From Candidatus Latescibacterota bacterium (lineage in GTDB: Bacteria; Latescibacterota; UBA2968; GCA-2709665): a DNA stretch of 64,000 nucleotides. Below the pieces are notes generated by a model. The model did no database searches and was not told the DNA's origin. It saw nothing but the letters and a program-made list of their open reading frames with translations. This document shows, piece after piece, positions 17,879 to 38,275 of the stretch. Both the position numbers and the translations under genes were made by a program. The DNA is taken from assembly GCA_965219995.1 (NCBI GenBank), contig CBDCOX010000002.1, positions 4,448,001-4,512,000 on the forward strand, in the 5' to 3' direction. Within the stretch, counting starts at the first letter, position 1. Each line of letters begins with the position of its first letter.

Positions 17879-20077
17879 ATGGAGCGTTTTACAGTAGAAC
17901 ATCTGCTTCAATTGAAGGTGCCGGCAACGCGGATACCCTTTGATCTCAGTTCCGATGGGCGGTTTCTGGCGCTTACGATGGTGGCCGTCGGCCGCAGCCC
18001 ATCAGTATTGAGATCCGGAGAGCATTCGGGCGTTCCACAGGAAGTCATGCGGCCTACGGTGGTCGTCGTCGATACCGAGGCGTCCGATTTTGTATATCCA
18101 TTCGGCGAAACCGCGGTCTCCTGGGCGCCTCAGTGGTCACCGGACGGTCACCGTCTCGCGGCATACATTCAGAAAGATGACAATCCGGCCTGCCTGGCGA
18201 TATGGGACCGGAACACGTCGACGACGGAAGTGTACGAGGACGCGAAATACGTCGGCGATTACGGGTTTGAGGTCCCCAGGTGGACAAACGACGGACGCCG
18301 GATTCTGATGAAAGCGGATCCCGGGAAACAGGATGCCGGCGCCGAAGATTCCGGAGAGAATGGCATTCAACGGCGGACTTCCGCCGAATCGGTTGTCGTC
18401 CCGATTGATGACTGGGAGAAGCGGGGAGACCTCATCGCGGTGGACGTGGGGTCGCGGGAGGTTTCGGTGTTGGCGGAAAACTGGTCGTTTCGATGCTGGC
18501 GCCCGTCCCCCGACGGGACTCACGTTGCCTGTTTGCGCATCGAGGGACACAATAAGGTTTCTGGTGGGAACGTAAGCGGTCTGATGGTCATCGACATCGA
18601 CCGTCGGAAGACGCTGTGTGCCGCCCGCGGGATCGTGCAGTCGTATACGACCGCATTCAACTGGTCGCCGGACGGCACGCGGCTATGCTATATGACGTGG
18701 GGTGGGGAGAACTCCGGCCATCTCCATGTGGTCGAGAAGGATGGAGGGAGCGGACCGATCGATATTGCGGGTGAAAGCGGCGCGTACATCAGAAAAATCG
18801 ATGCGTTCTACGAAGCGCCGCCAAGGTGGCGCCCAGATTCCACGGAGATACTGCAGCCGGTCCCAGGGGGAATCTGGGTTATCGAAGCATCCGGGGCGGC
18901 TCAGCGAAAACTGCCGGTACCGGACGGTTACAGGGTGTCCACCTGGTTGCTCCAGCAAGAAAGTCCGGTTGTGAATGGCGGCAGGATACCCCTCGCCGTT
19001 ACTCGTAAGGATGAGACGCTCTGTATCGCGGAGCTGGACCTCGAAAGCGGGGCGTTTCGGGAGATGCTCGAGTTAGACGGCGCCATCCAGTCTTGTACGC
19101 TGCTGAATGAGGCGTCAGGTGACGGCGGTACGATATTCATCGCGCGGGAAACCGCAATAAAGCCGCCTGAAGTCATCAGAATCTGCCGAAGCGGCGGCGT
19201 CACGGGCGTTTTCGATCCGCTGCCTTCGATCGATTCTATCAGTATGGGCACGCCGGAGCTTGTTGAGTTCGAATTGGACGACCAGGAGAGCTACAAGGCG
19301 GCTCTGATGCTGCCACCCGGTTTCGATGGAAGGCGTCCCCTTCCGGCAATCACCGTGGTCTACGGCGATTCCTCATACTCGGAGGATATAAACAGATTCG
19401 GATTTATGGAAACCCCATCCGAGGACAACGCCCACTTTCTGGCGCACCGGGGTTACGCGGTGGTGTACCCGGATACCGACCTTTCTGGACGCGACCCGAT
19501 GATTGAGATTGCGGCCAGAACGACGCCCGTGATCGAGCACCTGATCGATCGGGGAACCATCGACCCGAACCGGATCGGACTGTACGGTCACAGTTACGGC
19601 GCTTATTCCGTGCTGGCGCTCCTGGCCCAGACAAAGCTCTTCACGGCCGCCGTATGCAACGCGCCGATTGCGAATTTGACCAGTTTCTACAGTCAGCAGG
19701 ACTGGTACTGGTTCGAGTCGGGACAGGGTGGAATGGGAAAGCCGCCCTGGGACGATCCCGAGGCGTACGTCCGCAACTCACCCCTGTTCCTTCTGGATCA
19801 AATCGAGGCGTCGTTGCTGCTCGTCAACGGCAGCGAAGACACCGCCGCTTCAAGGCAGGCCGAGGAAGTGTTCAAGGGGCTGTTGAGGCTCGGACGGAAA
19901 GTGGAGTGGATCCAATATGAAGGCGCAGACCATTTCACGCCTGAGTGGGAGCACACGAAGCTCGAACATCTGTGCAATACCATGCTCGACTGGTTCGATG
20001 AACACCTGTGGAGTCATTCCCGGTTCTCTACGCGTCCTCCCTCGTATCCCTCCGCATTCTTCCAATTCCAACCTTGA
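17879..20077 (+). CDS. S9 prolyl oligopeptidase / acylaminoacyl-peptidase family
   Basis: PD40-like propeller repeats (WSPDG), GHSYG nucleophile motif, GSED Asp, ADHF His. Start uncertain (ORF track 17792). Confidence 0.88.
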   Translation: MERFTVEHLLQLKVPATRIPFDLSSDGRFLALTMVAVGRSPSVLRSGEHSGVPQEVMRPTVVVVDTEASDFVYPFGETAVSWAPQWSPDGHRLAAYIQKDDNPACLAIWDRNTSTTEVYEDAKYVGDYGFEVPRWTNDGRRILMKADPGKQDAGAEDSGENGIQRRTSAESVVVPIDDWEKRGDLIAVDVGSREVSVLAENWSFRCWRPSPDGTHVACLRIEGHNKVSGGNVSGLMVIDIDRRKTLCAARGIVQSYTTAFNWSPDGTRLCYMTWGGENSGHLHVVEKDGGSGPIDIAGESGAYIRKIDAFYEAPPRWRPDSTEILQPVPGGIWVIEASGAAQRKLPVPDGYRVSTWLLQQESPVVNGGRIPLAVTRKDETLCIAELDLESGAFREMLELDGAIQSCTLLNEASGDGGTIFIARETAIKPPEVIRICRSGGVTGVFDPLPSIDSISMGTPELVEFELDDQESYKAALMLPPGFDGRRPLPAITVVYGDSSYSEDINRFGFMETPSEDNAHFLAHRGYAVVYPDTDLSGRDPMIEIAARTTPVIEHLIDRGTIDPNRIGLYGHSYGAYSVLALLAQTKLFTAAVCNAPIANLTSFYSQQDWYWFESGQGGMGKPPWDDPEAYVRNSPLFLLDQIEASLLLVNGSEDTAASRQAEEVFKGLLRLGRKVEWIQYEGADHFTPEWEHTKLEHLCNTMLDWFDEHLWSHSRFSTRPPSYPSAFFQFQP

Positions 20078-20102
20078 CGGCGGAATCGAAAAATACTATA
20101 CT
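20074..20102 (+). promoter_or_regulatory. Sigma70 promoter (copy 1)
   Basis: TTGACG-N17-TATACT. Confidence 0.6.
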
Positions 20103-20611
20103 GATGTGCAGTATGTTGATTTTCTTTAATGAGTTTGCACGTCTCGTCAGTCAGGACCCGTTTTTCCGGCGAATTTGAAGCAGGTCAGGGAGTTGATTTC
20201 GAAGACATTCGGAGACCGGGAAGCGTTATTTGACCTTAAGGTGCGGGCTGTCGTTGGTAAGAATCTCGTTGCCAGGTGGCATTCTTCGCCCGAAAGAGTG
20301 CCGGAGGTCGACCTGTTGACGTTATCCGTGGAATCCAACAAGACAAACCGGGTAGAAATCGTCGGGTGAAATCTGCGAATCCTACAACGAGAAGAACGTG
20401 GCGAATGAATAGACTTGACTTTTCGCTGTTTGTTCAGAAAGACCCTTGTTAGTCACGCCCTGGTCGCGTATATTTCGGTTAGTCCTTGTCAACAATCAGC
20501 GTAATCCGCGGGTCGGGCAGTCAGCCGAATACAACAACCACCGACCCCGTTGAGGGGTAAGCGCCCCGATACCTTGCGGTGTCTGTAGCGGAAAACTGCT
20601 CAGGGTGTATA

Positions 20612-20818
20612 ATGGATGCGGTCATATGGATAAATCTCGCGGGTGTGCTGGCTATCCTGGGCCTGGGGTGGCGTGGATACAGCAAGCTCGACAGCAAGAT
20701 AGATACCCTGGGTAGCAAACGGGAGGAAAGAATCGCCAACCTTGGCGAGCGAGTTGCTCGCATCGAGGGTATGATGTCTGTGACGTATCGCCACGAGGAG
20801 CCGAAGGAACCAACCTGA
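20612..20818 (+). CDS. Small membrane-anchored coiled-coil protein (probable IS passenger)
   Basis: MDAVIWINLAGVLAILGLGW TM segment followed by ERVARIEG; lies convergent to the IS1595 remnant. Confidence 0.5.
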   Translation: MDAVIWINLAGVLAILGLGWRGYSKLDSKIDTLGSKREERIANLGERVARIEGMMSVTYRHEEPKEPT

Positions 20819-21117
20819 CCGATCAAGTCCCTGTATTTGAGCCGTCCGCCAACCATCACCGAGACGAACACGCCCATCCGGTCGCTCACGAAATTCCCAA
20901 CTGAGCACTTTTCCGATCGATTCCTCACGCCTCGCGTCTCCGGTCAGCCTGGAGCGATGTCCCCATATCCGGTGGCGTTCCCTTCCGCGTGCCACGCCAA
21001 GTAGCCCTTCCCTGCAGCTCCTGCAATTACTTCGGTAACCTCAACATCGCCGTTCGTTATTCTGTGCCGGATCCCCGCGACAACGGACTTGCCAACCGTG
21101 CAGCGTCCTCCGTTCAA
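20818..21117 (-). pseudogene. Degenerate IS1595-family transposase fragments
   Basis: LNGGRCTVGKSVVAGIRHRITN...HAEGNATGYGD resembles the IS1595 GRGxVGKxxVxG...DR.TN...GATVYTD segment; MVGGRLKYRDLIG resembles the family C-terminus; the intervening sequence is deleted or degraded. Confidence 0.65.
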
Positions 21118-21385
21118 TATTAGCGGGTCTGTGTTCCAGGTGATATCGGTATTGGCGAGTTGCCCTCAGACGGATACACGGGATAACAGCACCGGAACTC
21201 ACGCGATCAGTGGGTCTCGGTCTTTGTCCTGTCTATCCTGCCCCTTTAAATCAAGAAAACAGAACCTACACGGATGGAAAGGATGGAAAGGATAAAATCC
21301 GAACAGGCGGAAGCATGCTACCTATTCTCTGCTTTAGCGATGAATCCGCCCACCCTGAAACCCCGATGCTTCGACCGAATCCAAC

Positions 21386-21414
21386 TTGACATCGATCTGG
21401 TAAAATACTATACT
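21386..21414 (+). promoter_or_regulatory. Sigma70 promoter (copy 2)
   Basis: TTGACA-N17-TATACT. Confidence 0.65.
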
Positions 21415-21449
21415 AACGTGCACTATTTTCTTTCTTCGAACGAATTTCC

Positions 21450-21524
21450 ATGTCCCGGAAGAGCGCAACCGAGTGGGTCAACGGTGCCTGTAACCCGGTT
21501 GCCGGACGGACAAAGGTCAGCCTC
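21450..21524 (+). pseudogene. Diverged copy of the first 25 codons of the DUF5131 gene
   Basis: 58/75 nt identical to 21704-21778 (MSRKSATEWVNGACNPVAGRTKVSL vs MSRKSAIEWTNATWNPVTGCTKVSP). Confidence 0.8.
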
Positions 21525-21703
21525 ATAGGTTCAAAACATACGGAGTTACTGCATTTGTTGATTGCAAGTCTGGCTTCGTGATTTCCTGGTGTCGGTTGTT
21601 CCCCGCATAGTCAGTATAATACGCAGTCTGTCGTATTGGTTTTTCGCTTTCATCCTGTTTGTCCTGTGCATCCATGTTTCCAGTCTGAGCAAAGGGAAAC
21701 CAA

Positions 21704-22573
21704 ATGTCCCGGAAGAGCGCTATTGAGTGGACAAACGCCACCTGGAATCCGGTAACCGGATGCACGAAGGTCAGCCCCGGCTGCGACCACTGCTATGCCG
21801 AACGGCTGTCCGAGCGGTTCCGAGGCGTCGAGGGACACCCGTTCGAGACCGGCTTCGACCTGACGCTTCGACCCGCGCGCCTGGAACAGCCGCTGGGGTG
21901 GCGTCGGCCACAGCTCATTTTCGTCAATTCGATGAGCGACCTCTTCCACAAGGATATTCCTGCGGACTACATTCATGGCGTATTCGACACCATGGAACGC
22001 GCGGACTGGCACATCTACCAGGTGCTCACCAAGCGCAGTTCCCTGATGCGCCGCTTCGTCGAAGAACGGTATCCGAACGGACCGGCGCCACCACATATCT
22101 GGCTCGGCGTCTCCATCGAGAACGACGCGGCGCTCACGCGGCTCCGACATCTCAAGGAGACCAACGCATCCGTCCGTTTCGTCTCATTCGAGCCCCTGAT
22201 CGGCCCAATCGGGACGGTGAATCTTGAGGATGTTCACTGGGTGATTGCGGGAGGGGAAAGCGGACCCGGAGCGCGTCCGATTGAGGCAGAATGGGTACGT
22301 GAATTGCGGAACCAGTGCGAGACCCAACACGTGGCCTTCTTCTTCAAACAATGGGGCGGACGGACACCAAAAGCGGGAGGCAATACTCTGGACGGAAGGC
22401 AGTGGATGGAGTATCCGGGGATTGAGCCTGGCGCAATATCAAACTCAACTCTGCAAGCGGCCGGTGCACCGGTAGATGACGAAATCGTTACGATGAATGT
22501 CGATGCGTCGTTAACCAAGAAACGCAAGTCCCTCCGGTATAAGCCATGGCGGCCTTACTACCAACGATCCTGA
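21704..22573 (+). CDS. DUF5131 / phage Gp37Gp68 family radical-SAM-like protein
   Basis: IEWT..TWNPVTGCTKVSPGCDHCYAE, FVNSMSDLFH, LTKR, SFEPLIG, WVIAGGESG, FFFKQWGG. Confidence 0.92.
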   Translation: MSRKSAIEWTNATWNPVTGCTKVSPGCDHCYAERLSERFRGVEGHPFETGFDLTLRPARLEQPLGWRRPQLIFVNSMSDLFHKDIPADYIHGVFDTMERADWHIYQVLTKRSSLMRRFVEERYPNGPAPPHIWLGVSIENDAALTRLRHLKETNASVRFVSFEPLIGPIGTVNLEDVHWVIAGGESGPGARPIEAEWVRELRNQCETQHVAFFFKQWGGRTPKAGGNTLDGRQWMEYPGIEPGAISNSTLQAAGAPVDDEIVTMNVDASLTKKRKSLRYKPWRPYYQRS

Positions 22574-22701
22574 CGTGAGGCAGAGCCGGGGGACATCGTA
22601 ATCGCGTTTCGCGCCAGATATGAAGTCGAGACAGACGCTCAAGAGTTCGCAGTCTCGAAATTCATCGTAATGCCAGGTTCGGATTCTTTACAGGGGATGG
22701 G

Positions 22702-23745
22702 ATGGCCAACCTTAGATACACCTCGGGTGGATTCCCGTCGGATTTATGGCCCAATCTGAAGGAACCGAGCCATCTGGAGGTATCGTGGGTGGAAATGGTC
22801 TGGGCTGCAATTACCGTAGGACGCGAAAGCATCTATGACGTATATGGGCACGGGTTTGAGTCGCTGCTGGAAATAATTTACCGATCAGCGATGGTTCGGG
22901 CGAATCTGAGCTCTTCGCGTATAGAAGGATTTAATAAAACGGACGCATACAAGGATCTTGATCCATCGGAAAAATCTGCGGTTTCGTATTTCTTGGGACT
23001 CTCCGTCGCAAAGCTCGCGGCCCACCGGTTATTTGGGATACCTTGGCTTATTCATCTGGATCGTGTTCCTGACTGCGGCAAAACCCTAGAGGGAAAAAGC
23101 CGTCCGGACCTCGTTGGCCTGGATAATGCGGGAAAATGGTGTGTTTTCGAAGCAAAAGGTCGAACAGGTCCCATCGACAATGACACGATTCGAAGGGCGA
23201 GGGAGCAAACTCACGGATTAACGAGGATATATGGAAACGCTCCATCGATTAGAGTTGCTGCCATCTCCCATTTTCGCAATGGAGGACTTGAGTTACACTT
23301 GGAAAACTCAAATGGAGTCGACTCAGTTACCGACGATCCTGAAATACCCGACGGAGAAAATTACTTCTTGAGATCCTATTATGGACCCTTTGTGTCTCTT
23401 ATTGAATACGCCACATCCCTTTTCGATGAAACCAGTACTCGGAGGATAGAATTCGAGCATGAAGGAAATCGAAAGATAAATGCAGTGGAACTCTCTGCAT
23501 TGGGTCTGATCGTGGGAATGGATTCTTTCGTACAAGAAGCACTTAAGCAGGGCGCTCGGGAGCAGGACGCCTTGAACCGCGATGCTGGTCTAAGGTATCG
23601 ACTTGCAGCACAACCTAAAGCTATTCCTGAATTCCAAGCCGAAGCCCAGGTCGGTGTTTCGCGATTCGATGGATACGCGTCATTCTTGGGACCTGACGGG
23701 ATATTTGTCGGCCTCGGGCCGTCGTGGGACCAAGTGAAACAGTAA
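22702..23745 (+). CDS. Uncharacterised putative PD-(D/E)xK nuclease
   Basis: SRPDLVG...WCVFEAKGR motif with a downstream AREQ helix; 347 aa; lower GC. Confidence 0.65.
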   Translation: MANLRYTSGGFPSDLWPNLKEPSHLEVSWVEMVWAAITVGRESIYDVYGHGFESLLEIIYRSAMVRANLSSSRIEGFNKTDAYKDLDPSEKSAVSYFLGLSVAKLAAHRLFGIPWLIHLDRVPDCGKTLEGKSRPDLVGLDNAGKWCVFEAKGRTGPIDNDTIRRAREQTHGLTRIYGNAPSIRVAAISHFRNGGLELHLENSNGVDSVTDDPEIPDGENYFLRSYYGPFVSLIEYATSLFDETSTRRIEFEHEGNRKINAVELSALGLIVGMDSFVQEALKQGAREQDALNRDAGLRYRLAAQPKAIPEFQAEAQVGVSRFDGYASFLGPDGIFVGLGPSWDQVKQ

Positions 23746-23987
23746 GGGGACCTACAGTCAACTGAACCGGAAGTGCTGTGAAGTCAAGCTCCTAGCGTCG
23801 CGGACCAACCGATGCTGGCGACGAGTTGGTATTCGCCATCGATTGACACAGCCTGAGATTTACATTATGATATCGGTCCAGATTCCGCTGGAGATATCGG
23901 CCATCTATGGGTTTGAGCGGGCAGGGTGCGGTGGGCCTCGATTGAACGCATCGTGACCGCCAATGTATGTGGATTTGGGGGTGTCGG

Positions 23988-24494
23988 ATGGAAGCCATGT
24001 CAGATCGAAACAACCAAGCTGGAAAGTTGACCGTTGTGTTCTTCACTCTTGTCGTTCTGGCAGGATTCCAACCCGGATACACGGAGGAACTGGTATCTGA
24101 GCAGTTACGTGAATCTGCGGGGCACGGCGACATCATCGCTCAACTTAAACTCGCCGCGTACTTGAGTGGGCTCGAGGCGCACCGGCATCACGTAGAGGCT
24201 ATAAGGTGGTATCGGATGGCCGCCGAACAGGGAAGTGTCACCGCACAAGTCAGACTGGCCGAAATGCACGAAGATGGCAAAGGAGTGCCGAAGGATGACC
24301 GGGAGGCCGTGATTTGGTACCGTAAAGCTGCCGAACAGGGAAATTTCGCAGGTCAGGCGAACTTGGCTCACATATACAGAAATGGTGAGGGAGTGCCGGA
24401 GGGTGACCGGGAGGCCGTGAAATGGTACTGGAAGGCCGCCGAGCAGAAGCCGGGGCTTCAGTCGCCTCGGCTTTTATTATGGGCTAAATTGTGA
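23988..24494 (+). CDS. Sel1-repeat (SLR) protein, probably 3'-truncated
   Basis: N-terminal TM/signal; repeats EAIRWYRMAAEQG, EAVIWYRKAAEQG, EAVKWYWKAAEQ; the last repeat degenerates. Confidence 0.8.
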   Translation: MEAMSDRNNQAGKLTVVFFTLVVLAGFQPGYTEELVSEQLRESAGHGDIIAQLKLAAYLSGLEAHRHHVEAIRWYRMAAEQGSVTAQVRLAEMHEDGKGVPKDDREAVIWYRKAAEQGNFAGQANLAHIYRNGEGVPEGDREAVKWYWKAAEQKPGLQSPRLLLWAKL

Positions 24495-24544
24495 AGGGTT
24501 TCGGAGTACGGTCGTCAGGACACCTCTGCCAATTGAGCGTGTCG

Positions 24545-25435
24545 TTAGCGCCGAAACCTCGGGGTCCAACTGTCCATCAATGCTTCGTCAGAATCTTGTT
24601 CTTCGATATAGCTATCATAATCCAAATCAGGGCAGGTGAGAACCGTCAGCACGCGCCCATAGTTCCCAAGTTCAACTACTTCCTCCTGGGCCACGACTGA
24701 CCTGTGGCCGCCAAGCCAGGTCGCGATCTCGACCTCACCATTGGCACGCGATTCCTTCGGTTCGCCATCGGTACCGTTTAAAACTGACTCAGTAACGGTT
24801 TCCGACGGCACCAGCATACCCTTTCGCGGCCAATCTATACCTCTCAACGACTTCATCTTATCGGACATAAAACAATAGTCAACTGTGCCACTGCTGCTGA
24901 CAACGATGGCCACAGCCCCGTCTGTAAGCCCAACATATCGGATCGCCGCTGCAGTAAGAGAGGCTATCGCCTTTTCTCGAACGGCCTCGATACATTTGAG
25001 ACCGGCATCCGTGCCATATATGACTTGGCGAACGAGAGTAGTCGGCATCAACAGACCAGCTGCGAAGTAGTCTGCCTCACGTTCGTAACGATCAATAGAG
25101 ACAAATTCTGCCCGTGAATGATGTTCATCCTCTTCGAAAGGAATATGATCAAGATGACCGTCGATAAAGTAGTGCCCGAGTTCATGGGCGATGCTGAATC
25201 GCTGAAAACCTTCGTTCGGAACTCGAGTGGAGTAAAGTATCCCAAAGGAATCGCCATGGCGAAGCAGCATGCCCGATACGCCTTTTCTTGGCGATTGCAT
25301 CGTTTGTACAATTATCCCGCGGGTCTGTGCTAATGTCTTTAGATCCACGGGCAGAGCCAGAAGGTTTTCTTCTTTAAGTAACCGTTCGGCTTGGCGCAGA
25401 AGCGACTTACCTCGATGTTCGGATACGAGATTCAT
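24545..25435 (-). CDS. capP: ImmA/IrrE-family metallopeptidase (CapP-like CBASS regulator)
   Basis: QRFSIAHELGH, EREADYFAAGLLMP; overlaps the HTH gene; divergent from CBASS. Confidence 0.82.
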   Translation of the reverse strand: MNLVSEHRGKSLLRQAERLLKEENLLALPVDLKTLAQTRGIIVQTMQSPRKGVSGMLLRHGDSFGILYSTRVPNEGFQRFSIAHELGHYFIDGHLDHIPFEEDEHHSRAEFVSIDRYEREADYFAAGLLMPTTLVRQVIYGTDAGLKCIEAVREKAIASLTAAAIRYVGLTDGAVAIVVSSSGTVDYCFMSDKMKSLRGIDWPRKGMLVPSETVTESVLNGTDGEPKESRANGEVEIATWLGGHRSVVAQEEVVELGNYGRVLTVLTCPDLDYDSYIEEQDSDEALMDSWTPRFRR

Positions 25436-25791
25436 CGCTCCTCACTGTCGTGTTGCCCACGGTCTCGAGCGGCCAGAAAGCGCAAGAAGTCCTCGGCGGT
25501 TTGGCGGTTCTCGCCGGTAAGATTCACAACGTCACGATACAGCGGGTCGGCCGAAACCGCCGTGTTGGGATCATCAGCTCTTCCAACTAGATAATCCGTC
25601 GTCACATTAAGTGCGTTCGCTAGTTTTCTAAGGTTGTCAAACGACGGCTTTCTGTTGCCGCCCTCGAAATGGGCGATGGAACTGGGTGGCAGCCCGACCG
25701 CTTTTGCGAGCTCAGCTTGAGTCATGCGTCGCAGGTTTTCTCGTGCTGAACGCAGGCGGTATTGGAAAAATTCGGACGGTCTTTGGGGCAT
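25432..25791 (-). CDS. capH: XRE HTH repressor (CapH-like)
   Basis: MTQAELAKAVGLPPSSIAHFEGGNRKPSFDNLRKLANAL; context next to CapP and CBASS. Confidence 0.8.
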   Translation of the reverse strand: MPQRPSEFFQYRLRSARENLRRMTQAELAKAVGLPPSSIAHFEGGNRKPSFDNLRKLANALNVTTDYLVGRADDPNTAVSADPLYRDVVNLTGENRQTAEDFLRFLAARDRGQHDSEER

Positions 25792-25804
25792 TTTTCTCTT
25801 TTTA

Positions 25805-25854
25805 TGTCGATTTCGACAATATAACTTGACGAATATATCGAAATCCTGTATCTT
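25805..25854 (+). promoter_or_regulatory. CBASS promoter with candidate CapH operator palindromes
   Basis: TTGACG(25826)-N17-TATCTT; TGTCGA-TT-TCGACA at 25805-25818; GATTTCGA...TCGAAATC flanking the -35. Confidence 0.6.
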
Positions 25855-25948
25855 CATTTATCAAGATAACATAACAGGGGTCATTTTTGCAAGCGCCAAT
25901 TTTTCCGAGGGGATTTTGTGGCTTTCTGTAGGGGAGAAAACCGAAAAT

Positions 25949-26932
25949 ATGTGTAAGCCTTTTCACATTTTGTCCATTGATGGCGGCGGACACCGTGGGA
26001 TTTTTGCTGCCCACATATTGAAGAGAATGGAAGAGGAGTGGCAGATTGATTGGCAACGACAATTCGGAATGCTGGCAGGCACCAGTTCAGGTGCAATTTT
26101 GGCTGCCGGATTGGCTTCTCAGATTTCAGCAACGCACCTAACTGAATTCTACGAGACCCATGGAAGCGACATTTTCACGCCAAGAAGACGGGCGTACCCA
26201 GATCCTTTCAAGCTATTCACGAGCCGGTATTCAAGCCCGAAGCTAAAGAAACTCCTTGAGAAGGAGTTCGGTGAAACGCTGCTTGGCGAGATAAAGATCC
26301 CGCTCATTCTACCTGCTGTCGACGTCGGCAACGGATGCGTACATGTCCTTAAGTCCAGGTACGATCCTTCGTTTACCAGGGACTATAGGGTGCGTGTGTC
26401 GGATGCTGTTCTAGCGTCGTGCTCTGCGCCGACTTACTTCGACCCTGTTGTAATTGATGACAAATACCGGCTTGTTGATGGGGGACTCTGGGCTAACAGT
26501 CCGTCTCTAGTGGCAGCAATTGATGCCAACTACCGCCTCAAAATTCCACTTGAGAAAATCAGAGTGCTTTCCATTGGTACCGGAAAAAGCAAAGTGTTCT
26601 ATCCTAGGAGCGATGGTAGGTTTAGAGACTACTTACTTCGAAGTTGGCAGGGTTGGGGCTTTGTGACTCGTTGGCAGCGCAGTAAGTTCATTGATCTAAT
26701 CCTGAATCTTCAGTCAGAAAATGCCCACAACACGCTCTGCCTTATGTTTGGCGAGAGTCCGATCAATCCGAAACGGGTTCTCCGCTTAAATTTCGAATCG
26801 GATCGGCCGTTGCCCCTGGACTCAGTTAGAAAGCAAAGCGACTGGATTTCTGAAGCGGACCGTACTTTCACCCACCAGTCGGATAAAATAGCACGATTCT
26901 TGTCTGTCAAAGGAGGAAATCAAGATGAATAG
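25949..26932 (+). CDS. capV: CBASS patatin-like phospholipase effector
   Basis: ILSIDGGGHRG, GTSSG (GxSxG), SAPTYF, DGGLWANSP; directly upstream of the CD-NTase. Confidence 0.88.
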   Translation: MCKPFHILSIDGGGHRGIFAAHILKRMEEEWQIDWQRQFGMLAGTSSGAILAAGLASQISATHLTEFYETHGSDIFTPRRRAYPDPFKLFTSRYSSPKLKKLLEKEFGETLLGEIKIPLILPAVDVGNGCVHVLKSRYDPSFTRDYRVRVSDAVLASCSAPTYFDPVVIDDKYRLVDGGLWANSPSLVAAIDANYRLKIPLEKIRVLSIGTGKSKVFYPRSDGRFRDYLLRSWQGWGFVTRWQRSKFIDLILNLQSENAHNTLCLMFGESPINPKRVLRLNFESDRPLPLDSVRKQSDWISEADRTFTHQSDKIARFLSVKGGNQDE

Positions 26933-28160
26933 TTGGGACCGTCACCGGCAATTGAATCAGATCTTTGAAGATCTTGTGGAGGAAATCGCTCTACCACCGT
27001 CGCGGTACCACGAGGCCAGAGAGCGCTACAACGCGGTCGGAGCCTGGTTGGATGCACCGGACTCCGAACTTGCGCTGTACAAACCCATCATTTCCCCGCA
27101 GGGATCATTCGCGTTAGGCACGGCCGTGCGCCCTATCGGCAGTGATGAGACCGACGTAGATGCCGTGTGCCTGCTCCAGCTTTCCCCCATTCAGGTCACC
27201 CAGAGGCAGTTAAAGGATTTGGTTGGGGATCGCCTCAAGCATCCACAAAGCCGTTACAAGAACATGATTGAACCCAAAGGAGGCGGACGCCGATGTTGGA
27301 CGATTCGGTACGCGGATCAAGCCAGATTTCATCTGGATGTGCTCCCGGCTATTCCGGATGACTATCGGTGGCTTGTGAACTTAGGGGTTCCGGAAGTGTG
27401 GGCTGAGACAGCCATCCGCATCACCGATAGAGAGACGTGGGATATCGACCCGGAGTGGCCGCGAAGCAATCCAAAAGGCTATGCGGCTTGGTTCATTAGC
27501 CGCATGCAGACGCGTCTCGATGAGGCCAAATACGCCTATGTACGGGAAACACGCAAGGACCTCGACGAGACCATTTACGCACACGAGATGGAAATTCGCG
27601 CAGAAGTAGAGAAGATTCAAGATTTCGACGTAAGTACACCCCTGCAGCAACTCATTCAGATCCTCAAGCGTCACCGTGACCTGCGCTACAACGGTGACGA
27701 CGATAAACCCATTTCGATCATCATTACCACTCTCGCAGCGATGGCGTACGATAACGAAGCCAGCATCGGAGAAGCGATAGCGAATGTCGTACCGAATATG
27801 CGAACAGCAATTGAGTACCGTAACGGTGTCTACTGTGTTTCAAATCCTGTGAATCCTAAGGAGAACTTTGCCGACAAGTGGGACGAATGCCCACGAAAAG
27901 CCGAGCTGTTTTTCGAATGGCTAAACGCCGTAGAGCGGGAATACCAGAATCTCCTTACCGATACAGGATTCGAAAAAGTTGGAGGGTATCTGATCGAAAC
28001 GTTCGGACGCAGAGAAAGCGAGGAGACAATGGCTAAATTTGTAGCCCGGACGTCTCCCGGTGTTGCGCCAGCAGTGGTACTCACTCCGCGCAAGACCCAG
28101 CAGACAGCCAAACCAAAGATTGAGGCACCATCGAATCCAAGCAAACCTTGGGGACGTTGA
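26925..28160 (+). CDS. cGAS/DncV-like nucleotidyltransferase (CD-NTase)
   Basis: PQGSFALGTAVRP...TDVD, FHLDVLPA, SNPKGY, ILKRHRD, NPVNPKENFADKW; flexible tail ending KPWGR. Confidence 0.9.
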   Translation: MNSWDRHRQLNQIFEDLVEEIALPPSRYHEARERYNAVGAWLDAPDSELALYKPIISPQGSFALGTAVRPIGSDETDVDAVCLLQLSPIQVTQRQLKDLVGDRLKHPQSRYKNMIEPKGGGRRCWTIRYADQARFHLDVLPAIPDDYRWLVNLGVPEVWAETAIRITDRETWDIDPEWPRSNPKGYAAWFISRMQTRLDEAKYAYVRETRKDLDETIYAHEMEIRAEVEKIQDFDVSTPLQQLIQILKRHRDLRYNGDDDKPISIIITTLAAMAYDNEASIGEAIANVVPNMRTAIEYRNGVYCVSNPVNPKENFADKWDECPRKAELFFEWLNAVEREYQNLLTDTGFEKVGGYLIETFGRRESEETMAKFVARTSPGVAPAVVLTPRKTQQTAKPKIEAPSNPSKPWGR

Positions 28161-28164
28161 TCCA

Positions 28165-28926
28165 ATGGAAGAGGCAACCGCGCTGCTGGTGATGAGCCAG
28201 ATGACAGAGGTCCAAGCTCAACATCCGAGTCTGGAACTTATGCTTAAATCAGGTGAAGTGAGGATTCGTGGGGAGATAGGTTTCTGTTTTGACCATAACT
28301 CCCGCACGATTGAAGATACCTACCAAGTCGAGATTCAGATACCGGATGACTATCCAGAATCGCCGCCAAACGCGTTTGAAACCGGAAATAAGATCGACGA
28401 GAGTTTTGAACACTTTTTGATCGATGGGAGCCTATGTCTCGGGGCTCCACTAGAGATACGCCGAAAATTCCTGCAACACAAGAATCTCCTGCGGTTCATT
28501 AACGAACTGCTTGTCCCGTACCTATTTTCGTATAGTTGCAAGCGAGACTTCGGTGAGACGCCGTTCGGCGAACTTGCCCATGGCTGTACGGGAATAAGAC
28601 AATACTACCAGGATCTGTTTCGGGTTGAGGATTACGTAGCAATACTCGGCCTACTGAAAGTGTTGGCGGACGACAACTACCGGGGCCACCTTAAATGTCC
28701 CTGCGGAGCACGATCGAATGTGCGCCGATGTCATGGGTCACAGTTGCGGGAACTATCTTCCTTTCAGTCTTGCGATCAGTTTATTTGGGACGCATTTTCT
28801 GTTTATGAAACTCTTTCCGAGAACGAGCGTAAAGTAGCAATTGGCAGAAAACTATTGCCGAAGAGGCTATTGAAGAAAATAAACCGAATGGCGGGATCCA
28901 GACAGTATCGAGCAGAGGCGAAATAG
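28165..28926 (+). CDS. Bacterial E2 (ubiquitin-conjugating-like) + SEC-C zinc motif, type II-short CBASS ancillary protein
   Basis: IPDDYPESPP, HFLIDGSLCLG (E2 catalytic Cys region), PFGELAHG, CPCG...RCH. Confidence 0.8.
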   Translation: MEEATALLVMSQMTEVQAQHPSLELMLKSGEVRIRGEIGFCFDHNSRTIEDTYQVEIQIPDDYPESPPNAFETGNKIDESFEHFLIDGSLCLGAPLEIRRKFLQHKNLLRFINELLVPYLFSYSCKRDFGETPFGELAHGCTGIRQYYQDLFRVEDYVAILGLLKVLADDNYRGHLKCPCGARSNVRRCHGSQLRELSSFQSCDQFIWDAFSVYETLSENERKVAIGRKLLPKRLLKKINRMAGSRQYRAEAK

Positions 28927-29052
28927 CAATTCGTTCAAACATCACCAGTCCATAATTGGATAGGTTTCTCGAAGACACGATATGGCGTCTTCAAAATGCG
29001 CGACTCCAATGACGCTATTTTCAGATTTCCCGCCTGCTGGACGGCAACTCTG

Positions 29053-31370
29053 TCACTCCACGCTTCTACCTGTCAAAGTCAATATCCCCGCAATCCGCCT
29101 CCCTACCTCCGCAAAGTACTGTACTTCCTCGGGCTTGAGCGCTCGGTCGAGCACTTTGTGTTCACGATATGAAAGCCATTTCTTGAGTACCTGATAGCCG
29201 CCGAGTTTGTAGTTCCATACCGCGGCGGGGACGTTGCGCCAGAAGGCTTTGTCATTCAGGTATATGTCGAACGTATTGTCACCCAGCACTGATTTCGCCG
29301 AGCCCAGCGCCTGGTTTTCATCCGCCGTGTATTTTCGTTGTTCAGCGTGCCCCTGTCCCGGCATCACGGCTTCGCCCGATCCGTAATGACCCCACCCGGC
29401 GGTGACCGCGAAGTCGTCACCCGACATATTACGATTATCGACAGTAGAGGGTTCGGCAATGCCCACGATTTCCGGTCGCAGTGTGCCCTCGGTCACGCCC
29501 GGAACAGGCGTGTCGGGATCAAGTAGACCTGCCAGTTCGCGGCCCCTCATTGCCGATGCTCTAAGAAACTCCGCTGCGCCTTCAGTCTTGCCATCGGGCC
29601 AACCAGGTAGCGGGATGCGGGGCCAGCCCATGCGTAATGCATCCGCATTAGCTTGCCGATACGTGGGATCGTGCATCACGGCCAATATATGATGAAATAT
29701 GTCTTCGACGTGGATCCCCAAACGTTCAATGTAAACTTCAGCGGCGGCCGATAGGTTCGGACGGTGTTGAAGCCCGTAGCTACCCAGTCCTAGACCTTCG
29801 TCCCGGAGATATGCTGGAAACAGAGCGGCGCCACTTTCTATTAGGTGAAAAGACCCAATGTGCGTCGTCAAGAAAGCTTGTGGTTCTGACCCATCTTTCC
29901 TGAGGCGTTTGGCCGAAGAAAACCATCTGTTGCCATGGAAAACATGCCGTTTATAGTCCGGAGCGGGCGCGGTTAGCAGTCGACGGTCTGCCTCCCAATA
30001 AAGCCAGCGATTGTCAAATGGTCGATATGTGACTCGAATGAATCCAGAATCACCTGGTCCGCCACGTGAAAGTAATGCTTCACGTGTCGTCCGCGCATCG
30101 GAAATCCTAAACGCTGACGAGTTTCTCATTGCTGCAGGACAACATCGCCTGATTTCTTCGTGGCTTAGTGCAGGATTGAAGTAGTCGGCAACTCGCTTAC
30201 GTAGGTGATCCTCGTCAATTCCAACGAGTAGTCGGTCTCGCCCTGTGTGGACACCCGGAAATGAAACCGGTACCAGATCGGGCAGAGACGGCCACTCGAA
30301 CCAGTCCTTGCTAACGGCCATAGGGCAAAATGGGAGCCCAAGTGGCAGGATGGGCTCGATACGGTCGTAAAGAACACGTGGTTTTACTTCCGCTGTCTGA
30401 ATCAGTTCCAATGGTTTTGCAATTCCCCAAAGTTGACGAAACTCCACCGACTCGGTCGGAGCATGATTGGTTTTGCGCACAAGGGTTGCAATAGCAGTGC
30501 CGACCTGGATGCCGACCGGGTCGCCTTCGGTCGAGAAGATGCTGGGGTCTGGCGCGCCCTTCGGCGTGACTTTGCCGGTTTTGTATTTGTCGCCGTTCAA
30601 GCAGTCAATGCGGATCGCATCGAACGTATCCAGATATCGCTCTCGCATCCCCGAAAAGGACATGCCATCGAGCCAGGAGTAGTTGGAGATGAAGCAAACA
30701 ACGCCTTGCCCCGTTTTCTCAGTGATGCGGCGTTCCGCCACGCGGAAAAATCGTACATAAAGATCATTCAATGCTCTTGAATCAGTGAGACTTACTTGTA
30801 TAGGTGTTCGGTACGCCTCCAACAGTTCATGTTCCTCTTCGATTGCAACTCCAGCGAAGCCGTTGTAGGGCGGATTGCCCAAAATCACAAGGATCGGTTT
30901 GTCCTGCTTTACCTTCCCGGCCCGGTCGCGTTCCTCTTGCAGTTCAGGAAAGGCAACGGTCTGAGATCCCTCGCCTGCACTCTCCCAGTCCGTCAGTGCA
31001 TTTGTAAGAAAGATCCCCGCACGCTCCGTTCCGTCATCCGACAGGGCCGCGTCGAGATCTCGCAAAGTAAGGTCGACCTGAAGATGGGCTACAACATAGG
31101 GTGCAGGCAAGATTTCGAACCCGAAAACGCGCTCTGTCGCCGCCTGCTTGACTCTTGCGCCTGCGAGCGCACCGAGGCCGCGTCCTTCGAGATTGGCGGC
31201 GATTCGGCGCAGTGCTTCGGCGAGATAGGCCCCGGTGCCGCAACACGGGTCGAGTACGTAGACGTTTTCTGCGGCGAGTCCGTCCGCGATGCCGAGGTCG
31301 CCCTTGAGCGCTTTATCGACTCTGGCGACCATGTATTGCACCACTTCTAACGGCGTGTACCAGACGCCTA
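29053..31370 (-). pseudogene. 3' part of a Type IIG/ISP-like restriction-modification enzyme (N6-adenine MTase + TRD), IS630-interrupted
   Basis: LGVWYTP resumes at the IS junction; DPCCGTG (motif I), GNPPY (motif IV), YRPFD, LGGYQVLKKWLSYRE. Confidence 0.88.
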
Positions 31371-32528
31371 GTACTTACTTGACAAAGAAAGCGAAATAAT
31401 ATATCTTGGGCTCATAGGGAATCGATCTCAATTCAATTGTGGAGAGGAGACCGCCTATGAGCCGCCCCGCCGTGTTGATCACGTTGAGTGACGAGGAAAA
31501 AGAGACGCTGTTGAGTTGGAGCCGTTCAGGCAAGACGCAACACCGTTATGTGCTACGCGCCCGGATTGTTCTTTCAGCATCGCAGGGCATTGCGAACCGT
31601 GACATCGCCAGGGACCTGGGAACGCGCGAGGCCACGGTGTGCAAGTGGCGCCGGCGCTTTCACGAGTCGGGTCTTTCCGGGTTGCAGGACAAGGCGAGGT
31701 CGGGTAAGCCTGCCAAGTACGATCTTTCAAGCGAAAGGCGAATTTTGGAGTCCTTGGACGACGCCCCGCCCAAGGGCTATGGAAACTGGACCGGTCCGTT
31801 GTTGGCCGACAAGCTGGGGATTTCTGTCCACTATGTCTGGCAAGTATTGCGCAACCACGGCATCTCACTGGCCAGAAGGCGCAGCTGGTGTATCAGCACC
31901 GATCCCGAATTTGCCGCCAAGGCCGCAGCCATTGTGGGGTTGTATCTGGAACCTCCCAAAAATGCGATTGTCTTGTGCGTCGACGAAAAGCCCGCGATCC
32001 AGGCGTTGGAAAGGGTACAGGGATGGCTCAAGCTGCCCAACGGCAAGGCCGTGACCGGCTTTAACCACGAATACAAGAGAAACGGCACCACCACGTTATT
32101 CGCCGCATTGAACGTCGCCACCGGCCTCGTCAAGGCCGGGCATTACAAAAGGCGCAAACGACGCCAATTCTTGAGCTTTATGAACGAACTTGTCGCCGAA
32201 TACCCCGATCAGGAACTCCACATCATCCTCGACAACCTGAACACCCACAAGCCCAAGAACGACCGCTGGCTGCCACGCCATCCAAATGTCCACTTCTACT
32301 ACACCCCTACCCACGCATCCTGGCTGAACCAGATCGAAATCTGGTTCAGCATCCTGTGGAGAAGCGCGCTCAAAGGCGGCTCCTTCACCTCGATTCGAGA
32401 CTTACGCACCGCCATCAATCACTTCATTGACGCCTACAACGAGAACGCACATCCCTTCGAGTGGAAAGCCACAAAAGTCCGACCCAAAGCCCTTGAAGAA
32501 AAATACTCTAATTTAGCCAATTAAGTAC
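31371..32528 (+). mobile_element. IS630-family insertion sequence (1158 bp) with TA target duplication
   Basis: TIRs GTACTTACTTGACAAA vs reverse complement GTACTTAATTGGCTAA (13/16); TA at 31369-31370 and 32529-32530 in CTAG context; removal restores KELGVWYTP in frame. Confidence 0.93.
31457..32524 (+). CDS. IS630 transposase
   Basis: N-terminal HTH, CVDEKPAIQAL, ILDNLNTHK, SWLNQIEIWF (DDE). Confidence 0.95.
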   Translation: MSRPAVLITLSDEEKETLLSWSRSGKTQHRYVLRARIVLSASQGIANRDIARDLGTREATVCKWRRRFHESGLSGLQDKARSGKPAKYDLSSERRILESLDDAPPKGYGNWTGPLLADKLGISVHYVWQVLRNHGISLARRRSWCISTDPEFAAKAAAIVGLYLEPPKNAIVLCVDEKPAIQALERVQGWLKLPNGKAVTGFNHEYKRNGTTTLFAALNVATGLVKAGHYKRRKRRQFLSFMNELVAEYPDQELHIILDNLNTHKPKNDRWLPRHPNVHFYYTPTHASWLNQIEIWFSILWRSALKGGSFTSIRDLRTAINHFIDAYNENAHPFEWKATKVRPKALEEKYSNLAN

Positions 32529-33581
32529 TAGTTCCTTTCGCAGGTCGGGGTCAAATGCTTCCAGGAAGGGCTCGTAGAAATAGGTAACGGCTTCTCCCTC
32601 GTTGAAGCGAGCGAAGAAGGCGTCGCGGTCCACCCGGTCAAGCGCGGCGGACGTCCAGTCGAGCACCTCCACGAGGCCGAGCTGCTGCAGCCGGCCTGGC
32701 TGCGAAATCTGCTGAAACAGAGCCTGCATCACCGGCGTGCGCAGATGCCACACTGCCTCATGCCAATTGAACGTGACCCCCGGCGCAGGTTTCTTTCGTG
32801 CCCACAGAACCCACGCGGAGAAGATTCCGTAGAATAGCGTCTGCACGAGTGTCGAGTGGAAAAAGCGCTCGCCTTGTTCGTCCTCGAATTGGACGCCGAG
32901 TGACTCTTCCAGCGCGGAACGTATCGCGTTGAGCGACGGAGAGTCGTCGGCGGCTACGACGCGTGCCAAGCCGTCCCGTGCGTAAGACGCGAGTAACCAG
33001 GCGAGGTCTTTCGATTCGGTGATCGCCGCTAGGTGAGACAATGCACGAATCAGGTATTCACTCAGGCCTGCGCCGACTTCGCGGGCGAAGGCGTGTGGCT
33101 TCTGCAACCTGCGGTTAAACTCCTCGTCGGTGCCAGCGAGGCTATAAGATTCGAAATCGGTCTCATTTCCGGCTCCGTCGCGACCGACAAGAGTAAACCC
33201 ACGAAAGTTGGTCATCAACACCAGGTGGTACCGGGTCCAATATCGTGTCACCTGACCACGAACCTCCGGCGTGCCCATATTTTCCGCTGTAGACTTTACT
33301 TCCACGACGCCGCGTTCAGGTTTCTGTCCGGAGCGCGGATTACCCTTCTGCACCTGATTTGCGGAATAAAGACCGAAATCCGGATGTCCCCCTCCTTGGT
33401 CTGCCATTTCGCTAACACAGAACACCTTCGGCTTTAGTGTCTCCCCGACGGCGTTCAGCAGATTCTCCAGCGGGCCAGAGTTCGAGCGCTCGCCGGTTCC
33501 CCCGCCCGTGGCGCGGATTCGTCCCAGTTGCTCGAAGTATTCCGCAACCGCTGTGGTCAGTCTCGTTGTCGATTTGGCCAT
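32529..33581 (-). pseudogene. 5' part of the restriction-modification enzyme (nuclease + helical domain)
   Basis: HPDFGL...GVVEVK PD-(D/E)xK, TLVQTLFYGIF, YFYEPFLEAFDPDLRKE(L) up to the IS junction. Confidence 0.88.
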
Positions 33582-33680
33582 AATACGTTATGCTCTTTCA
33601 ATTGGCTCAAGTTCGGGTATCGCAACCGAAAGCCGGATGCTCTGTTTGGAAAGTCATTGCTGGTAGTCTTCCAACAGGAA

Positions 33681-36600: not shown

Positions 36601-37226
36601 AAAGCACGTGACAAATAGTTCATTATGGAGTCGTTGTGGCTATAGCCGACAAAAAGAACGGTGAATGAACGAAATAACTCGACAAGAAAACTCCGTGCCC
36701 ACCCCTCTGTGAGATATGCGCGGCCAAAGTCTGCGTCTGTGAGAACCATCTCGTCAGGGCGATCAAGAGCACCGTGAACATGAACAATCCCGCTAAATTT
36801 CTTTCCTAAGGGCAGGGCGGGAGCTCGAAATACGTCCGGTTCCGCGTCAAACAGGCCGTCGACCGCCTGCTCAAACAACAGATCGAAATTGGTGGTGACG
36901 ATCAGGGGTGATTTGGATTTCGGATATAGCCTCAGAAGATCCCGGTGCAAATCGGTTGGGTGGGGGTTCTCCTGAGAAAGCTCTTGTTTTGCTCGAGTAT
37001 GTACGTCCGCACCGCTGTATTGAAGCCGACCCAGGAATTGGTCTTCGGACTCGTCGTCCTGCAAGGTTCTTCCCGTACCGCAAGCGATTGCCCTTGTTAG
37101 GCCTCGGAAGCTCGGAAGGTTTGCCGGGTCTCCCATTGATACGCCTGCGCCAGCGAATACGACTAGCTTGTCGTCGCGTAACGCGTTTACTATCTGTCTG
37201 GGAAAATCGATGCCTTTTATTTTCAT
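33681..37226 (-). CDS. Large SIR2-domain defence protein (Dsr1/DUF4020-like NADase)
   Basis: VFAGAGVS, IVTTNFD, VHVHG, DFGRAYL, VLFVGYSHND; about 900-aa helical C-terminal region. Confidence 0.85.
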   Translation of the reverse strand: MKIKGIDFPRQIVNALRDDKLVVFAGAGVSMGDPANLPSFRGLTRAIACGTGRTLQDDESEDQFLGRLQYSGADVHTRAKQELSQENPHPTDLHRDLLRLYPKSKSPLIVTTNFDLLFEQAVDGLFDAEPDVFRAPALPLGKKFSGIVHVHGALDRPDEMVLTDADFGRAYLTEGWARSFLVELFRSFTVLFVGYSHNDSIMNYLSRALPVEESEKRYVLSPEADSDRWHVLGIEPIHYPRSRGDVHSALYAGVRGIANHARRSILDWQREIAEIAKKPPTVDEEETDLIVDALTDESKTRFFTDAATSVEWVAWLDERNHLDGLFGTGELSERDGLLGSWLAEKFAYRHADELFLLIGRRHAQLNPKFWDALCRSVALRDEPSFDADTLSRWVSLLLATAPDQLETEHPLFWLGESCTKNKLLDRVVDVFDAMAASRVVVKRGFSWPDSDEKEQSPRIDVELGFVSDHFTINKLWIDGLKPNLDRVAETLLATVIGRLTTQHWTLNAWQEANRDWNPVSYSRSAIEPHEQDKYPETIDVLIDAARDCLGWLATNRPKVAAAWSDRLVNEGVPLLRRLAVHTLIERRDMNPNEKIDWLLSVTDLHDSSAHHELFQLMKAIYPNADEDRRTAVIEAIQAYRQPSVENEHAEEDGAAYVHFNWLHWIHNAAPNCRVAEAALEDVLRRHPDFRPQEHPDLTHWMSSVPGGHQSPWNVDELLSKSAEEWAEKLLSFQDTGINEPDRLGLNIAVSDAAKRDFQWGLELADALAKRRNWDTDLWNTLLRLWSETELDQNRVRQVIQQLERVELQRKCARTIAEFLYNLVTDDKTQHYLIPLTQVNQTAANLWSHVDRDDARREIGSWLTAAINSTAGLLAGFWLHSLNCWRRQQAEPSEGLHSNYRDGLAEIVEDTTLAGRLGRAVLARYLSFLVGVDRDWTETNLVPRFTDHSNVEDYRAIWDGFLYGRLSPAVAELMGVAFLKAVSRMEEDFSGQGRKQFISRYIDILGYFADDPLEVWIPRFIEHAGDHSRRYFAITIGNRLDHMGDSQQREWWEHWVKRYWEYRIQGVPAPLNADETWIKLCWLPDLKAVFPEAVDLAVKMPPVESKIQSANSSQVVYLVYRNKLWKHYPKAVAKLLSYLDQIKSRPLAWPNGKELIEELLRSDLSCEFKQRLREIAARRGLM

Positions 37227-38246: not shown

Positions 38247-38275
38247 GGAACTGCCCGTTGACAGGAGTCGAACCG

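Follow-up and report, generated by a model that had tools for sequence, protein, structure and literature searches.

A type II-short CBASS operon with CapH/CapP genes in a Latescibacterota genome, and the co-variation of cyclase tails with their partner genes

A contig of a Candidatus Latescibacterota bacterium (CBDCOX010000002.1, assembly GCA_965219995.1) carries, at 24545-28926 of the 64,000-nucleotide stretch analysed here (contig positions 4,448,001 to 4,512,000; hereafter the window, to which all coordinates refer unless another locus is named), what its sequence identifies as an intact type II-short, i.e. E2-only, antiphage signalling system based on cyclic oligonucleotides (CBASS) with a CapH/CapP pair and a CapV effector. 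The novel point lies at the C-terminal end of its cyclase: among cyclases of a single clade, the motif at the tail changes together with the type of partner encoded behind the cyclase gene. The Serratia marcescens system belongs to a class in which a short E2 accompanies an aromatic-Gly tail, while the window belongs to a different class, in which a long E2 with a zinc knuckle accompanies a KPW-type tail. Taken as a whole, we consider it quite probable that the locus is a working type II-short CBASS under the control of CapH/CapP, and that E2s of the long zinc-knuckle class recognise [KR]-P-W, a motif set two residues back from the end of the cyclase, and do not need a glycine at the linkage position.

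Organization of the operon

The span runs exactly from the stop codon of capP to that of the E2 gene and holds five genes, all with intact frames, in the content and order that a sequence-only reading of this DNA had given: a divergent helix-turn-helix (HTH) gene and HExxH peptidase gene, followed by genes for a patatin, a nucleotidyltransferase resembling cGAS and DncV (CD-NTase; hereafter the cyclase) and an E2. On the reverse strand, capP (24545-25435) encodes a 296-residue zinc peptidase of the M78/IrrE type with a HELGH motif (PADLOC capP at 1e-60, covering profile positions 5-241 of 242; Pfam Peptidase_M78 at 6.1e-12). Its start codon is overlapped by the stop codon of capH (ATGA), which likewise lies on the reverse strand (25432-25791) and encodes an HTH repressor of 119 residues from the ATG at 25791 (PADLOC capH at 1.4e-24; Pfam HTH_3 at 2.6e-15). 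The open reading frame (ORF) of capH extends up to 25857 (141 residues), and the PADLOC match starts at residue 28 of that longer frame.

The three remaining genes lie on the forward strand. The first, capV (25949-26932), encodes a patatin-like phospholipase effector of 327 residues from the ATG at 25949, in a frame open from 25724; it matches the PADLOC phospholipase effector at 4.9e-83 and the NCBIfam equivalog CBASS_lipase (NF041079) with 223.3 bits (cut-off 200, E 4.4e-66), and its translation contains GGGxxG (DGGGHRG), GxSxG (GTSSG) and DGG motifs. The end of capV overlaps by 8 nucleotides the start of the gene for the clade-G-like cyclase (26925-28160; 411 residues; PADLOC cyclase at 7.2e-117). 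Four bases past the cyclase stop begins the gene for an E2 of the long class (28165-28926; 253 residues; PADLOC E2 model PDLC00871 at 3.7e-72), for which we adopt the ATG at 28165 because the homologues begin there; a GTG upstream (28060) is not used by them.

Genes for E1 and JAB proteins, said by the same reading to be absent, were not found within the window. In the whole genome Prok-JAB gave a single match, about 535 kb beyond the window end, and ThiF gave three, the nearest about 276 kb before the window start, while the PADLOC E1-E2 models reached at best 1.7e-26 against the window E2 and covered the E2 part alone. The locus joins a cyclase bearing the GS...[DE]xD...D signature to an adjoining effector, as in CBASS, and has an E2 with neither E1 nor JAB in the operon, as in type II-short. 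Every one of its modules (CapH/CapP, CapV, CdnG, E1-less E2) has already been described and PADLOC models recognise all five genes, so that the locus is ordinary as a system.

Cyclase tails and their partner genes

The C-terminal tail of the cyclase (residues 380-411; 28062-28157, forward strand) is disordered in the monomer model, with a predicted local distance difference test score (pLDDT) below 50 at residues 380-407 and 409-411. It ends in ...PSNPSKPWGR, with K407-P408-W409-G410-R411 at 28143-28157, and its last 30 residues include 6 Pro and 4 Lys; the Pro/Lys-rich tail KPWGR with a penultimate glycine (G410-R411), to which the earlier reading had drawn attention, is indeed present. In alignment A1, P408 does not vary and W409 is conserved to at least 90%. 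A [KRQ]-P-[WY] motif lies within the last 14 residues in 116 of the 120 closest cyclase homologues; of the four exceptions, three are AGS-C fusions of greater length and one is a protein extended past KPWGP. In 105 of these 116 exactly two residues follow the motif. Searched by itself against PDB sequences, the cyclase tail returned nothing at E <= 10 and thus gave no direct alignment with SmCdnG; the Serratia tail residues discussed below are taken from the text of a preprint.

For a comparison across loci we used a set of 81, made up of the best 80 of 561 confirmed cyclase matches and one further locus found via its E2; related loci in this set are not independent of one another, and several are truncated where their contig stops. 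Purpose-built profiles served to type the gene that follows the cyclase, with 30 ORFs checked against PADLOC. Tail type tracks partner type in all 61 loci that have a partner. Next to a long zinc-knuckle E2 (41 loci), the cyclase has a KPW-type tail ([KR]-P-W plus a few residues) in 39 cases and is fused to the E2 in the other 2. Short E2s of 130-187 residues, the size of SmE2, are accompanied in 13 of 13 loci by an aromatic-Gly tail with 1-9 further residues, and E1-E2 Cap2 partners in 7 of 7 by a GF[AG] end. The 20 loci with no such partner are mixed (12 AGS-C-type endings, 6 others, 1 KPW-type and 1 GF[AG]). The two natural cyclase-E2 fusions, L019:5980-7830 (616 residues) and L049:5971-7833 (620 residues), have counterparts in two further fusions among the E2 representatives (616 and 660 residues), and in the L019 protein TTQPWSP is kept at the junction, some ten residues ahead of the E2 domain. 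Our literature search found no paper on the class defined by a long zinc-knuckle E2 and a KPW tail.

Structure and conservation of the E2

The E2 was modelled from 25 family members with a mean pLDDT of 92.3. Its residues 1-135 adopt the UBC/UEV fold, with VIA-align Z scores of 9.4-11.7 to the TSG101 UEV, UFC1, UBE2S and other E2s over residues 1-139 and superpositions at a root-mean-square deviation of about 3 A over 111-123 residues. The sequence-only reading had named the lack of a UBC fold in the third gene of the operon as a ground for giving it up; since residues 1-135 model as UBC/UEV, that ground falls away. Invariant in the alignment are Cys91 (in LCLGAP; 28435-28437), His139-Gly140 (in ELAHG), Pro68 and Glu72, and Cys178, Pro179, Cys180 and Cys189 are nearly so; His83 lies upstream of Cys91. 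The catalytic-cysteine pattern occurs in 177 of 223 family members, all of which have a histidine 3-14 residues upstream of it, while 170 have HG 35-60 residues downstream and 173 have C-x-C...C.

The C-terminal half of the protein is helical and carries a C178-x-C180...C189-H190 zinc knuckle (residues 178-190; 28696-28734) and a basic tail. Of the SEC-C domain that had been assigned to it, the C-x-C...C-H pattern is there at 178-190, whereas Pfam SEC-C (PF02810) did not match the window E2 at E <= 1. Among the 25 family members in the alignment, 13 do match this Pfam profile (best 3e-6), the E2 family profile matches the C-terminal zinc peptide of SecA (1ozb) at E 0.002, and the C-x-C...C-[HC] knuckle pattern is found in 115 of the 150 best E2 representatives. 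With cluster representatives numbering 2,680 at E <= 1e-3, 2,030 at <= 1e-10 and 725 at <= 1e-30, the family of the long E2s is a large one.

The closest studied counterpart is the Serratia CdnG-E2 system (PDB 8HSB, 8YJY, 9KKB), with which the window locus shares an E2-only operon, a clade-G cyclase (SmCdnG being the top structural match), a long disordered cyclase tail ending in aromatic-Gly-X, and a UBC-fold E2 with a cysteine and an upstream histidine. By contrast, SmE2 has 162 residues and ends in an H152/K159 loop, where the 253 residues of the window E2 include a helical half that bears the zinc knuckle and the basic tail; no similarity is detectable between the two sequences. The tail glycine also differs between them, being invariant beside short E2s (13 of 13 loci) and present in only 21 of 116 homologues of the long-E2 class. 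Furthermore, the available part of the preprint on the Serratia operon describes a 2TM-SAVED effector and an additional exonuclease gene, and no capH/capP (bioRxiv 10.1101/2022.05.25.493364).

Regulation by CapH and CapP

The 157 bp between capH and capV (25792-25948) form a divergent control region. It contains a perfect 6+6 palindrome, TGTCGATTTCGACA (25805-25818), directly upstream of the -35-like box of a promoter-like pair on the forward strand (TTGACG at 25826-25831 and TATCTT at 25849-25854, spaced by 17 nucleotides), and a second, imperfect palindrome at 25849-25868; in relatives, the same gap carries TGACGAnnnCGTCA-like repeats. The arrangement resembles that of the CapH/CapP CBASS of Escherichia coli MS115-1, in which an HTH repressor and an HExxH peptidase of the M78 type are likewise divergent and share a promoter region with the CBASS core genes, and the candidate operator of the window likewise lies just upstream of the -35 box. 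The core of the E. coli system comprises HORMA and TRIP13 proteins with a nuclease effector. It is assigned to type III in the accessible text (bioRxiv 10.1101/2022.04.27.489752), unlike that of the window. According to the parts available of two preprints (bioRxiv 10.1101/2022.04.27.489752; 10.64898/2026.05.16.725639), the binding site of CapH in E. coli is a conserved element of 22 bp that lies upstream of the -35 box, and the position of the TGTCGATTTCGACA palindrome matches that of this element. The two peptidases differ in that the window CapP has no cysteine between HELGH and its EREAD stretch, the place at which the cysteine switch sits in E. coli CapP. However, this does not exclude it from the CapP family, since the authors state, in the same accessible portions, that some CapP homologues lack the switch (bioRxiv 10.1101/2022.04.27.489752; 10.64898/2026.05.16.725639).

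That capH and capP might belong to some adjacent mobile or defence element, as a repressor/antirepressor pair of its own with no part in controlling the CBASS genes, is conceivable, given that HTH and M78 pairs are widespread outside CBASS, that the PADLOC RmrA and control-protein models match both proteins too, and that the locus stands within a mosaic defence island with an insertion sequence (IS) element. We regard it as very improbable. The PADLOC capP (1e-60) and capH (1.4e-24) matches are far better than those to RmrA (1e-10 to 4e-13), the TGTCGATTTCGACA palindrome adjoins the -35-like box of the forward strand, and the divergent, promoter-sharing layout beside capV-cyclase-E2 is kept in eight loci of distant lineages whose outer neighbours differ.

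These eight of the 81 related loci, in which capP-capH diverge from capV-cyclase-E2, come from Latescibacterota, Marinacidobacterales, Bryobacterales, Smithellaceae, Nitratireductor and Nitrospira, and they have either a long E2 (L001, L003, L004, L009, L014, L053) or a short one (L051, L055). The combination had been held to be possibly uncharacterised; a layout that recurs in this way in several phyla is not unusual. Indeed, Lau et al. report, in the part of their preprint available, that capH/capP accompany CBASS of types I, II and III, and phospholipase effectors as well (bioRxiv 10.1101/2022.04.27.489752). In L009 the two regulators are fused in a 412-residue ORF (L009:3566-4801, reverse strand; PADLOC capH over residues 9-110, capP over 132-385), which stands upstream of capV, the cyclase and a long E2.

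Cyclase clade and second messenger

By sequence, the cyclase matches among PDB chains VcCdnG (9woo) at 1.8e-58, SmCdnG (8hsb) at 1.2e-27 and BdCdnG (7ljn) at 8.6e-12, and its family profile matches VcCdnG at 1.4e-82. In a Foldseek search with the cyclase model (mean pLDDT 78.8), the top hits were 8hsb, 8yjy and 7ljn, and the top six rows were all SmCdnG and BdCdnG, ahead of CdnB, CdnD, CdnC, DncV and CdnE. Judged from these best sequence and structural matches, the cyclase is clade-G-like. Its catalytic signature (G60-S61, D77, D79 and D138) is invariant in alignment A1.

The second messenger, which the sequence-only reading had called unknown, is not wholly open, given that every one of the solved cyclases closest to that of the window is a CdnG enzyme. 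VcCdnG (PMC12804361) and SmCdnG (bioRxiv 10.1101/2022.05.25.493364) make 3'2'-cyclic GMP-AMP (cGAMP), as far as the accessible texts go; our best guess for the window, by analogy with these two enzymes, is therefore a cGAMP isomer, most likely 3'2'-cGAMP. As regards the effector, the solved chains nearest to CapV are cGAMP-activated phospholipases (3e-43), with VcCapV (8zr9) at 9e-25.

Each of two Vibrio cholerae systems resembles one half of this pairing. The DncV-CapV system shares the patatin-like CapV effector, which is cGAMP-activated in Vibrio. DncV belongs to clade A, and its system uses the E1-E2 protein Cap2 and the JAB protein Cap3, not an E2 alone. Unlike what we expect of the window cyclase, DncV makes 3'3'-cGAMP (stated in the available part of PMC12804361), and among the matches to that cyclase the CdnG enzymes stand far ahead of it. 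The CdnG-Cap5 system (PDB 9WOO), on the other hand, supplies the closest solved cyclase by sequence, in an alignment that stops ahead of the tail; its effector, unlike that of the window, is the HNH-SAVED nuclease Cap5, and no E2 is mentioned in the accessible portion of the article (PMC12804361).

Proposed mechanism and alternatives

With the genes identified, the fold and its conserved residues described and the tail-partner co-variation observed above, we propose that the system may work as follows. As in the E. coli model, a CapH dimer bound to the palindrome upstream of the -35 box would hold expression of capV, the cyclase and the E2 low, until single-stranded DNA arising from DNA damage or phage replication activates CapP, whereupon CapH would be cut and the operon derepressed. 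Following the Serratia model, the E2 would then act as an E1-independent cysteine protease and transferase, in which Cys91 together with His83 attacks the cyclase tail; Arg411 would be released and the cyclase held as a Gly410 thioester before being passed to lysines, which would prime cyclase activity. A late phage cue may then elicit synthesis of a cGAMP-type dinucleotide, by its clade most likely 3'2'-cGAMP, and the dinucleotide would switch on the CapV phospholipase, so that the membrane is destroyed and the infection aborted.

The analogy to E1-less E2 processing, already drawn in the sequence-only reading, is apt. The Serratia cyclase ends in Y405-G406-E407, and its 162-residue E2 (C101, H87) removes E407 and links G406 to C101, as laid out in the accessible text of the preprint (bioRxiv 10.1101/2022.05.25.493364). 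G406 is then passed to K159 or to other cyclase molecules, E1 and ATP being unnecessary, and the substitutions G406V, G406L and G406R abolish linkage or immunity (bioRxiv 10.1101/2022.05.25.493364; PMC12948482, both as far as available). Clipping of Arg411 is a fair reading for the window cyclase, because W409-G410-R411 has the same geometry as Y405-G406-E407. What does not carry over from the proposed exposure of glycine is its generality, as the glycine is not conserved in the class: the residue after the Trp or Tyr is Arg in 60 of the 116 homologues, Gly in 21, Ser in 15, Lys in 9, Met in 5, Cys in 2, Gln in 2, Asn in 1 and Thr in 1, and the state at this position, glycine or not, changes at least 13 times on a FastTree phylogeny of these homologues built with the tails removed.

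A different cut has to be weighed here, namely that the long E2 cleaves after Trp409 and releases Gly-Arg, with the cyclase carried on Trp409 and the variable residue serving as part of a leaving group. An invariant P408 and a W409 conserved to at least 90%, next to a variable position, speak for this alternative, and over the 81 loci the tail past the aromatic residue varies from 1 to 7 residues, as a leaving group would; the L019 fusion, too, retains QPW ahead of its linker. Yet the exactly two residues past the aromatic one in 105 of 116 homologues reproduce the Serratia geometry of aromatic residue, linkage residue and one leaving residue, we found no precedent in the E2 literature consulted for a bulky Trp thioester, and linkage is unaffected in Serratia by Y405A (bioRxiv 10.1101/2022.05.25.493364, in the part available). 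On balance we hold cleavage after Trp409 to be unlikely.

Somewhat less probable still is a purely non-covalent role, in which the long E2 would bind the KPW tail to inhibit or scaffold the cyclase, with the zinc knuckle bringing the two to a further partner, and no conjugation would take place. The non-glycine residue at the expected linkage position in most homologues, set beside the loss of Serratia linkage in G406R, points in this direction, and so does the additional C-terminal half of the long E2, some 115 residues of helical, zinc-knuckle and basic sequence that SmE2 is without. In SecA, SEC-C motifs serve as zinc modules that bind partners, which counts for the same view. On the other side, Cys91 is invariant and its flanking residues are kept in the pattern-matching E2s (the upstream histidine in 177 of 177, the downstream HG in 170 of 177), which argues for retained catalysis; natural cyclase-E2 fusions also exist, as has been reported for E2-CBASS.

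We thus return to the reading in which the long E2 recognises [KR]-P-W and processes the tail next to it, against which several observations weigh. Most cyclases of the long-E2 class have Arg, Ser or Lys at the linkage position, and G406R abolishes both linkage and immunity in Serratia, so that for this class the linkage residue, or the linkage itself, is uncertain. No lysine is invariant in the long E2s that would correspond to K159 of SmE2, the loop being replaced by helices and the zinc knuckle. The E2 family profile gave no sequence match to SmE2 at E <= 1, nor did a search with the single E2, and the transfer of the Serratia mechanism accordingly draws on fold and motif; that SmE2 is not among the 50 matches listed for Foldseek or for VIA is no argument against a shared fold. 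The tail patterns were written after the sequences had been seen, and the profiles for short E2s and Cap2 were built from the same loci, although the pairing of tail and partner is clean all the same. A promoter scan of the control region performed at chance level, with 4 sites as compared with a mean of 4.0 in shuffled sequence, and because the count is no better than that, the promoter and operator within 25792-25948 are candidates only. CapV is established for 3'3'-cGAMP only, in Vibrio, as quoted in the accessible text of PMC12804361. Between its GYAAWF and TPLQQ helices the cyclase has extra residues relative to VcCdnG (about 195-232; 27507-27620), at the place where clade-G enzymes are reported to have a protease-sensing (tripwire) loop (Hobbs and Kranzusch preprint); in the window cyclase the model forms a hairpin of two helices there (195-210 and 217-230), joined by a short turn of mean pLDDT 62, a prediction that neither supports nor excludes a protease-tripwire mechanism. 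Finally, the literature searched gave no experiment on the window locus or on any long-E2 system.

Genomic setting and distribution

The operon lies within a stretch of lower G+C content at about 20-39 kb of the window (mostly 0.49-0.56, and up to 0.58 at 31-33.5 kb), between flanks of 0.57-0.64 on the left and 0.57-0.60 on the right. This stretch is a mosaic defence island, made up in turn of a DUF5131 gene, a 347-residue ORF, a Sel1-repeat gene, the CBASS operon, a split ISP/IIG gene, a Dsr1-like SIR2 gene and an AAA_21 gene. The DUF5131 gene and the 347-residue ORF that follows it occupy 21704-23745 on the forward strand. The DUF5131 gene corresponds to PADLOC PDC-M41B/M30B (about 1e-100), while the ORF has no Pfam, NCBIfam or PADLOC match. 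The ORF translation contains a D...EAK stretch resembling the PD-(D/E)xK nuclease motif. In the protein atlas its closest clusters are nameless (0.96-0.97), and the closest named ones, restriction endonucleases, reach only 0.79. Between this pair and capP lies the gene for the Sel1-repeat protein (23967-24494, forward strand).

Beyond the E2 gene, a type ISP/IIG restriction-modification gene (29053-33581, reverse strand) is present in two pieces, a C-terminal one at 29053-31344 (Type_ISP_C at 3.5e-40) and an N-terminal one at 32508-33581. It is split by an IS630-like element with a DDE_3 transposase gene (31439-32524) and terminal inverted repeats of 19 nucleotides (31368-31386 and 32513-32531). 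Adjoining the broken gene is that of a 1181-residue Dsr1-like defence protein (33681-37226, reverse strand; PADLOC Dsr1 at 1e-70, Pfam SIR2_2 and DUF4020), and the far end of the island is formed by the gene for an AAA_21 (AbiEii-like) ATPase (38276-39376, reverse strand), after which comes a TonB-dependent receptor (39488-42643). The window contains no tRNA genes and Rfam gave no match in 19000-39000; hence no integration site of the island was identified.

A second Latescibacterota genome, a public metagenome-assembled genome, has a copy of the CBASS genes that is 98-99% identical. Elsewhere the E2 is patchily spread, with a strong match in only 1 of 14 other genomes of the same genus and a match to the E2 family at E <= 1e-10 in 20 of 168 genomes sampled from the phylum, as is expected of an accessory defence gene. 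One locus, L010, holds an apparently decayed copy of the operon, in which only parts of capV and of the cyclase (residues 98-410) are matched and in-frame TGA stops interrupt the E2.

Conclusions

It is possible, though by no means probable, that the long zinc-knuckle E2s are a mechanistically distinct branch of E2-only CBASS, one which reads [KR]-P-W rather than aromatic-Gly, forms its acyl-enzyme on a residue other than glycine, most often Arg, and has a zinc-knuckle and basic module in place of the self-parking lysine loop of SmE2, which would set where or when the cyclase is conjugated. If so, the window system, in which a CapH/CapP switch and a CapV output are combined, would lend itself naturally to a test. 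Arg, Ser or Lys is tolerated in the long-E2 class at a position for which Gly or Ala is required by the Serratia enzyme, and conjugation through residues other than glycine, if true, would widen the known chemistry of bacterial ubiquitin-like transfer, with a role of the zinc knuckle that is directly testable. The value of the locus is as an entry to how an E1-independent E2 chooses and processes its substrate, a question that the single E2-CBASS model studied so far leaves unanswered.

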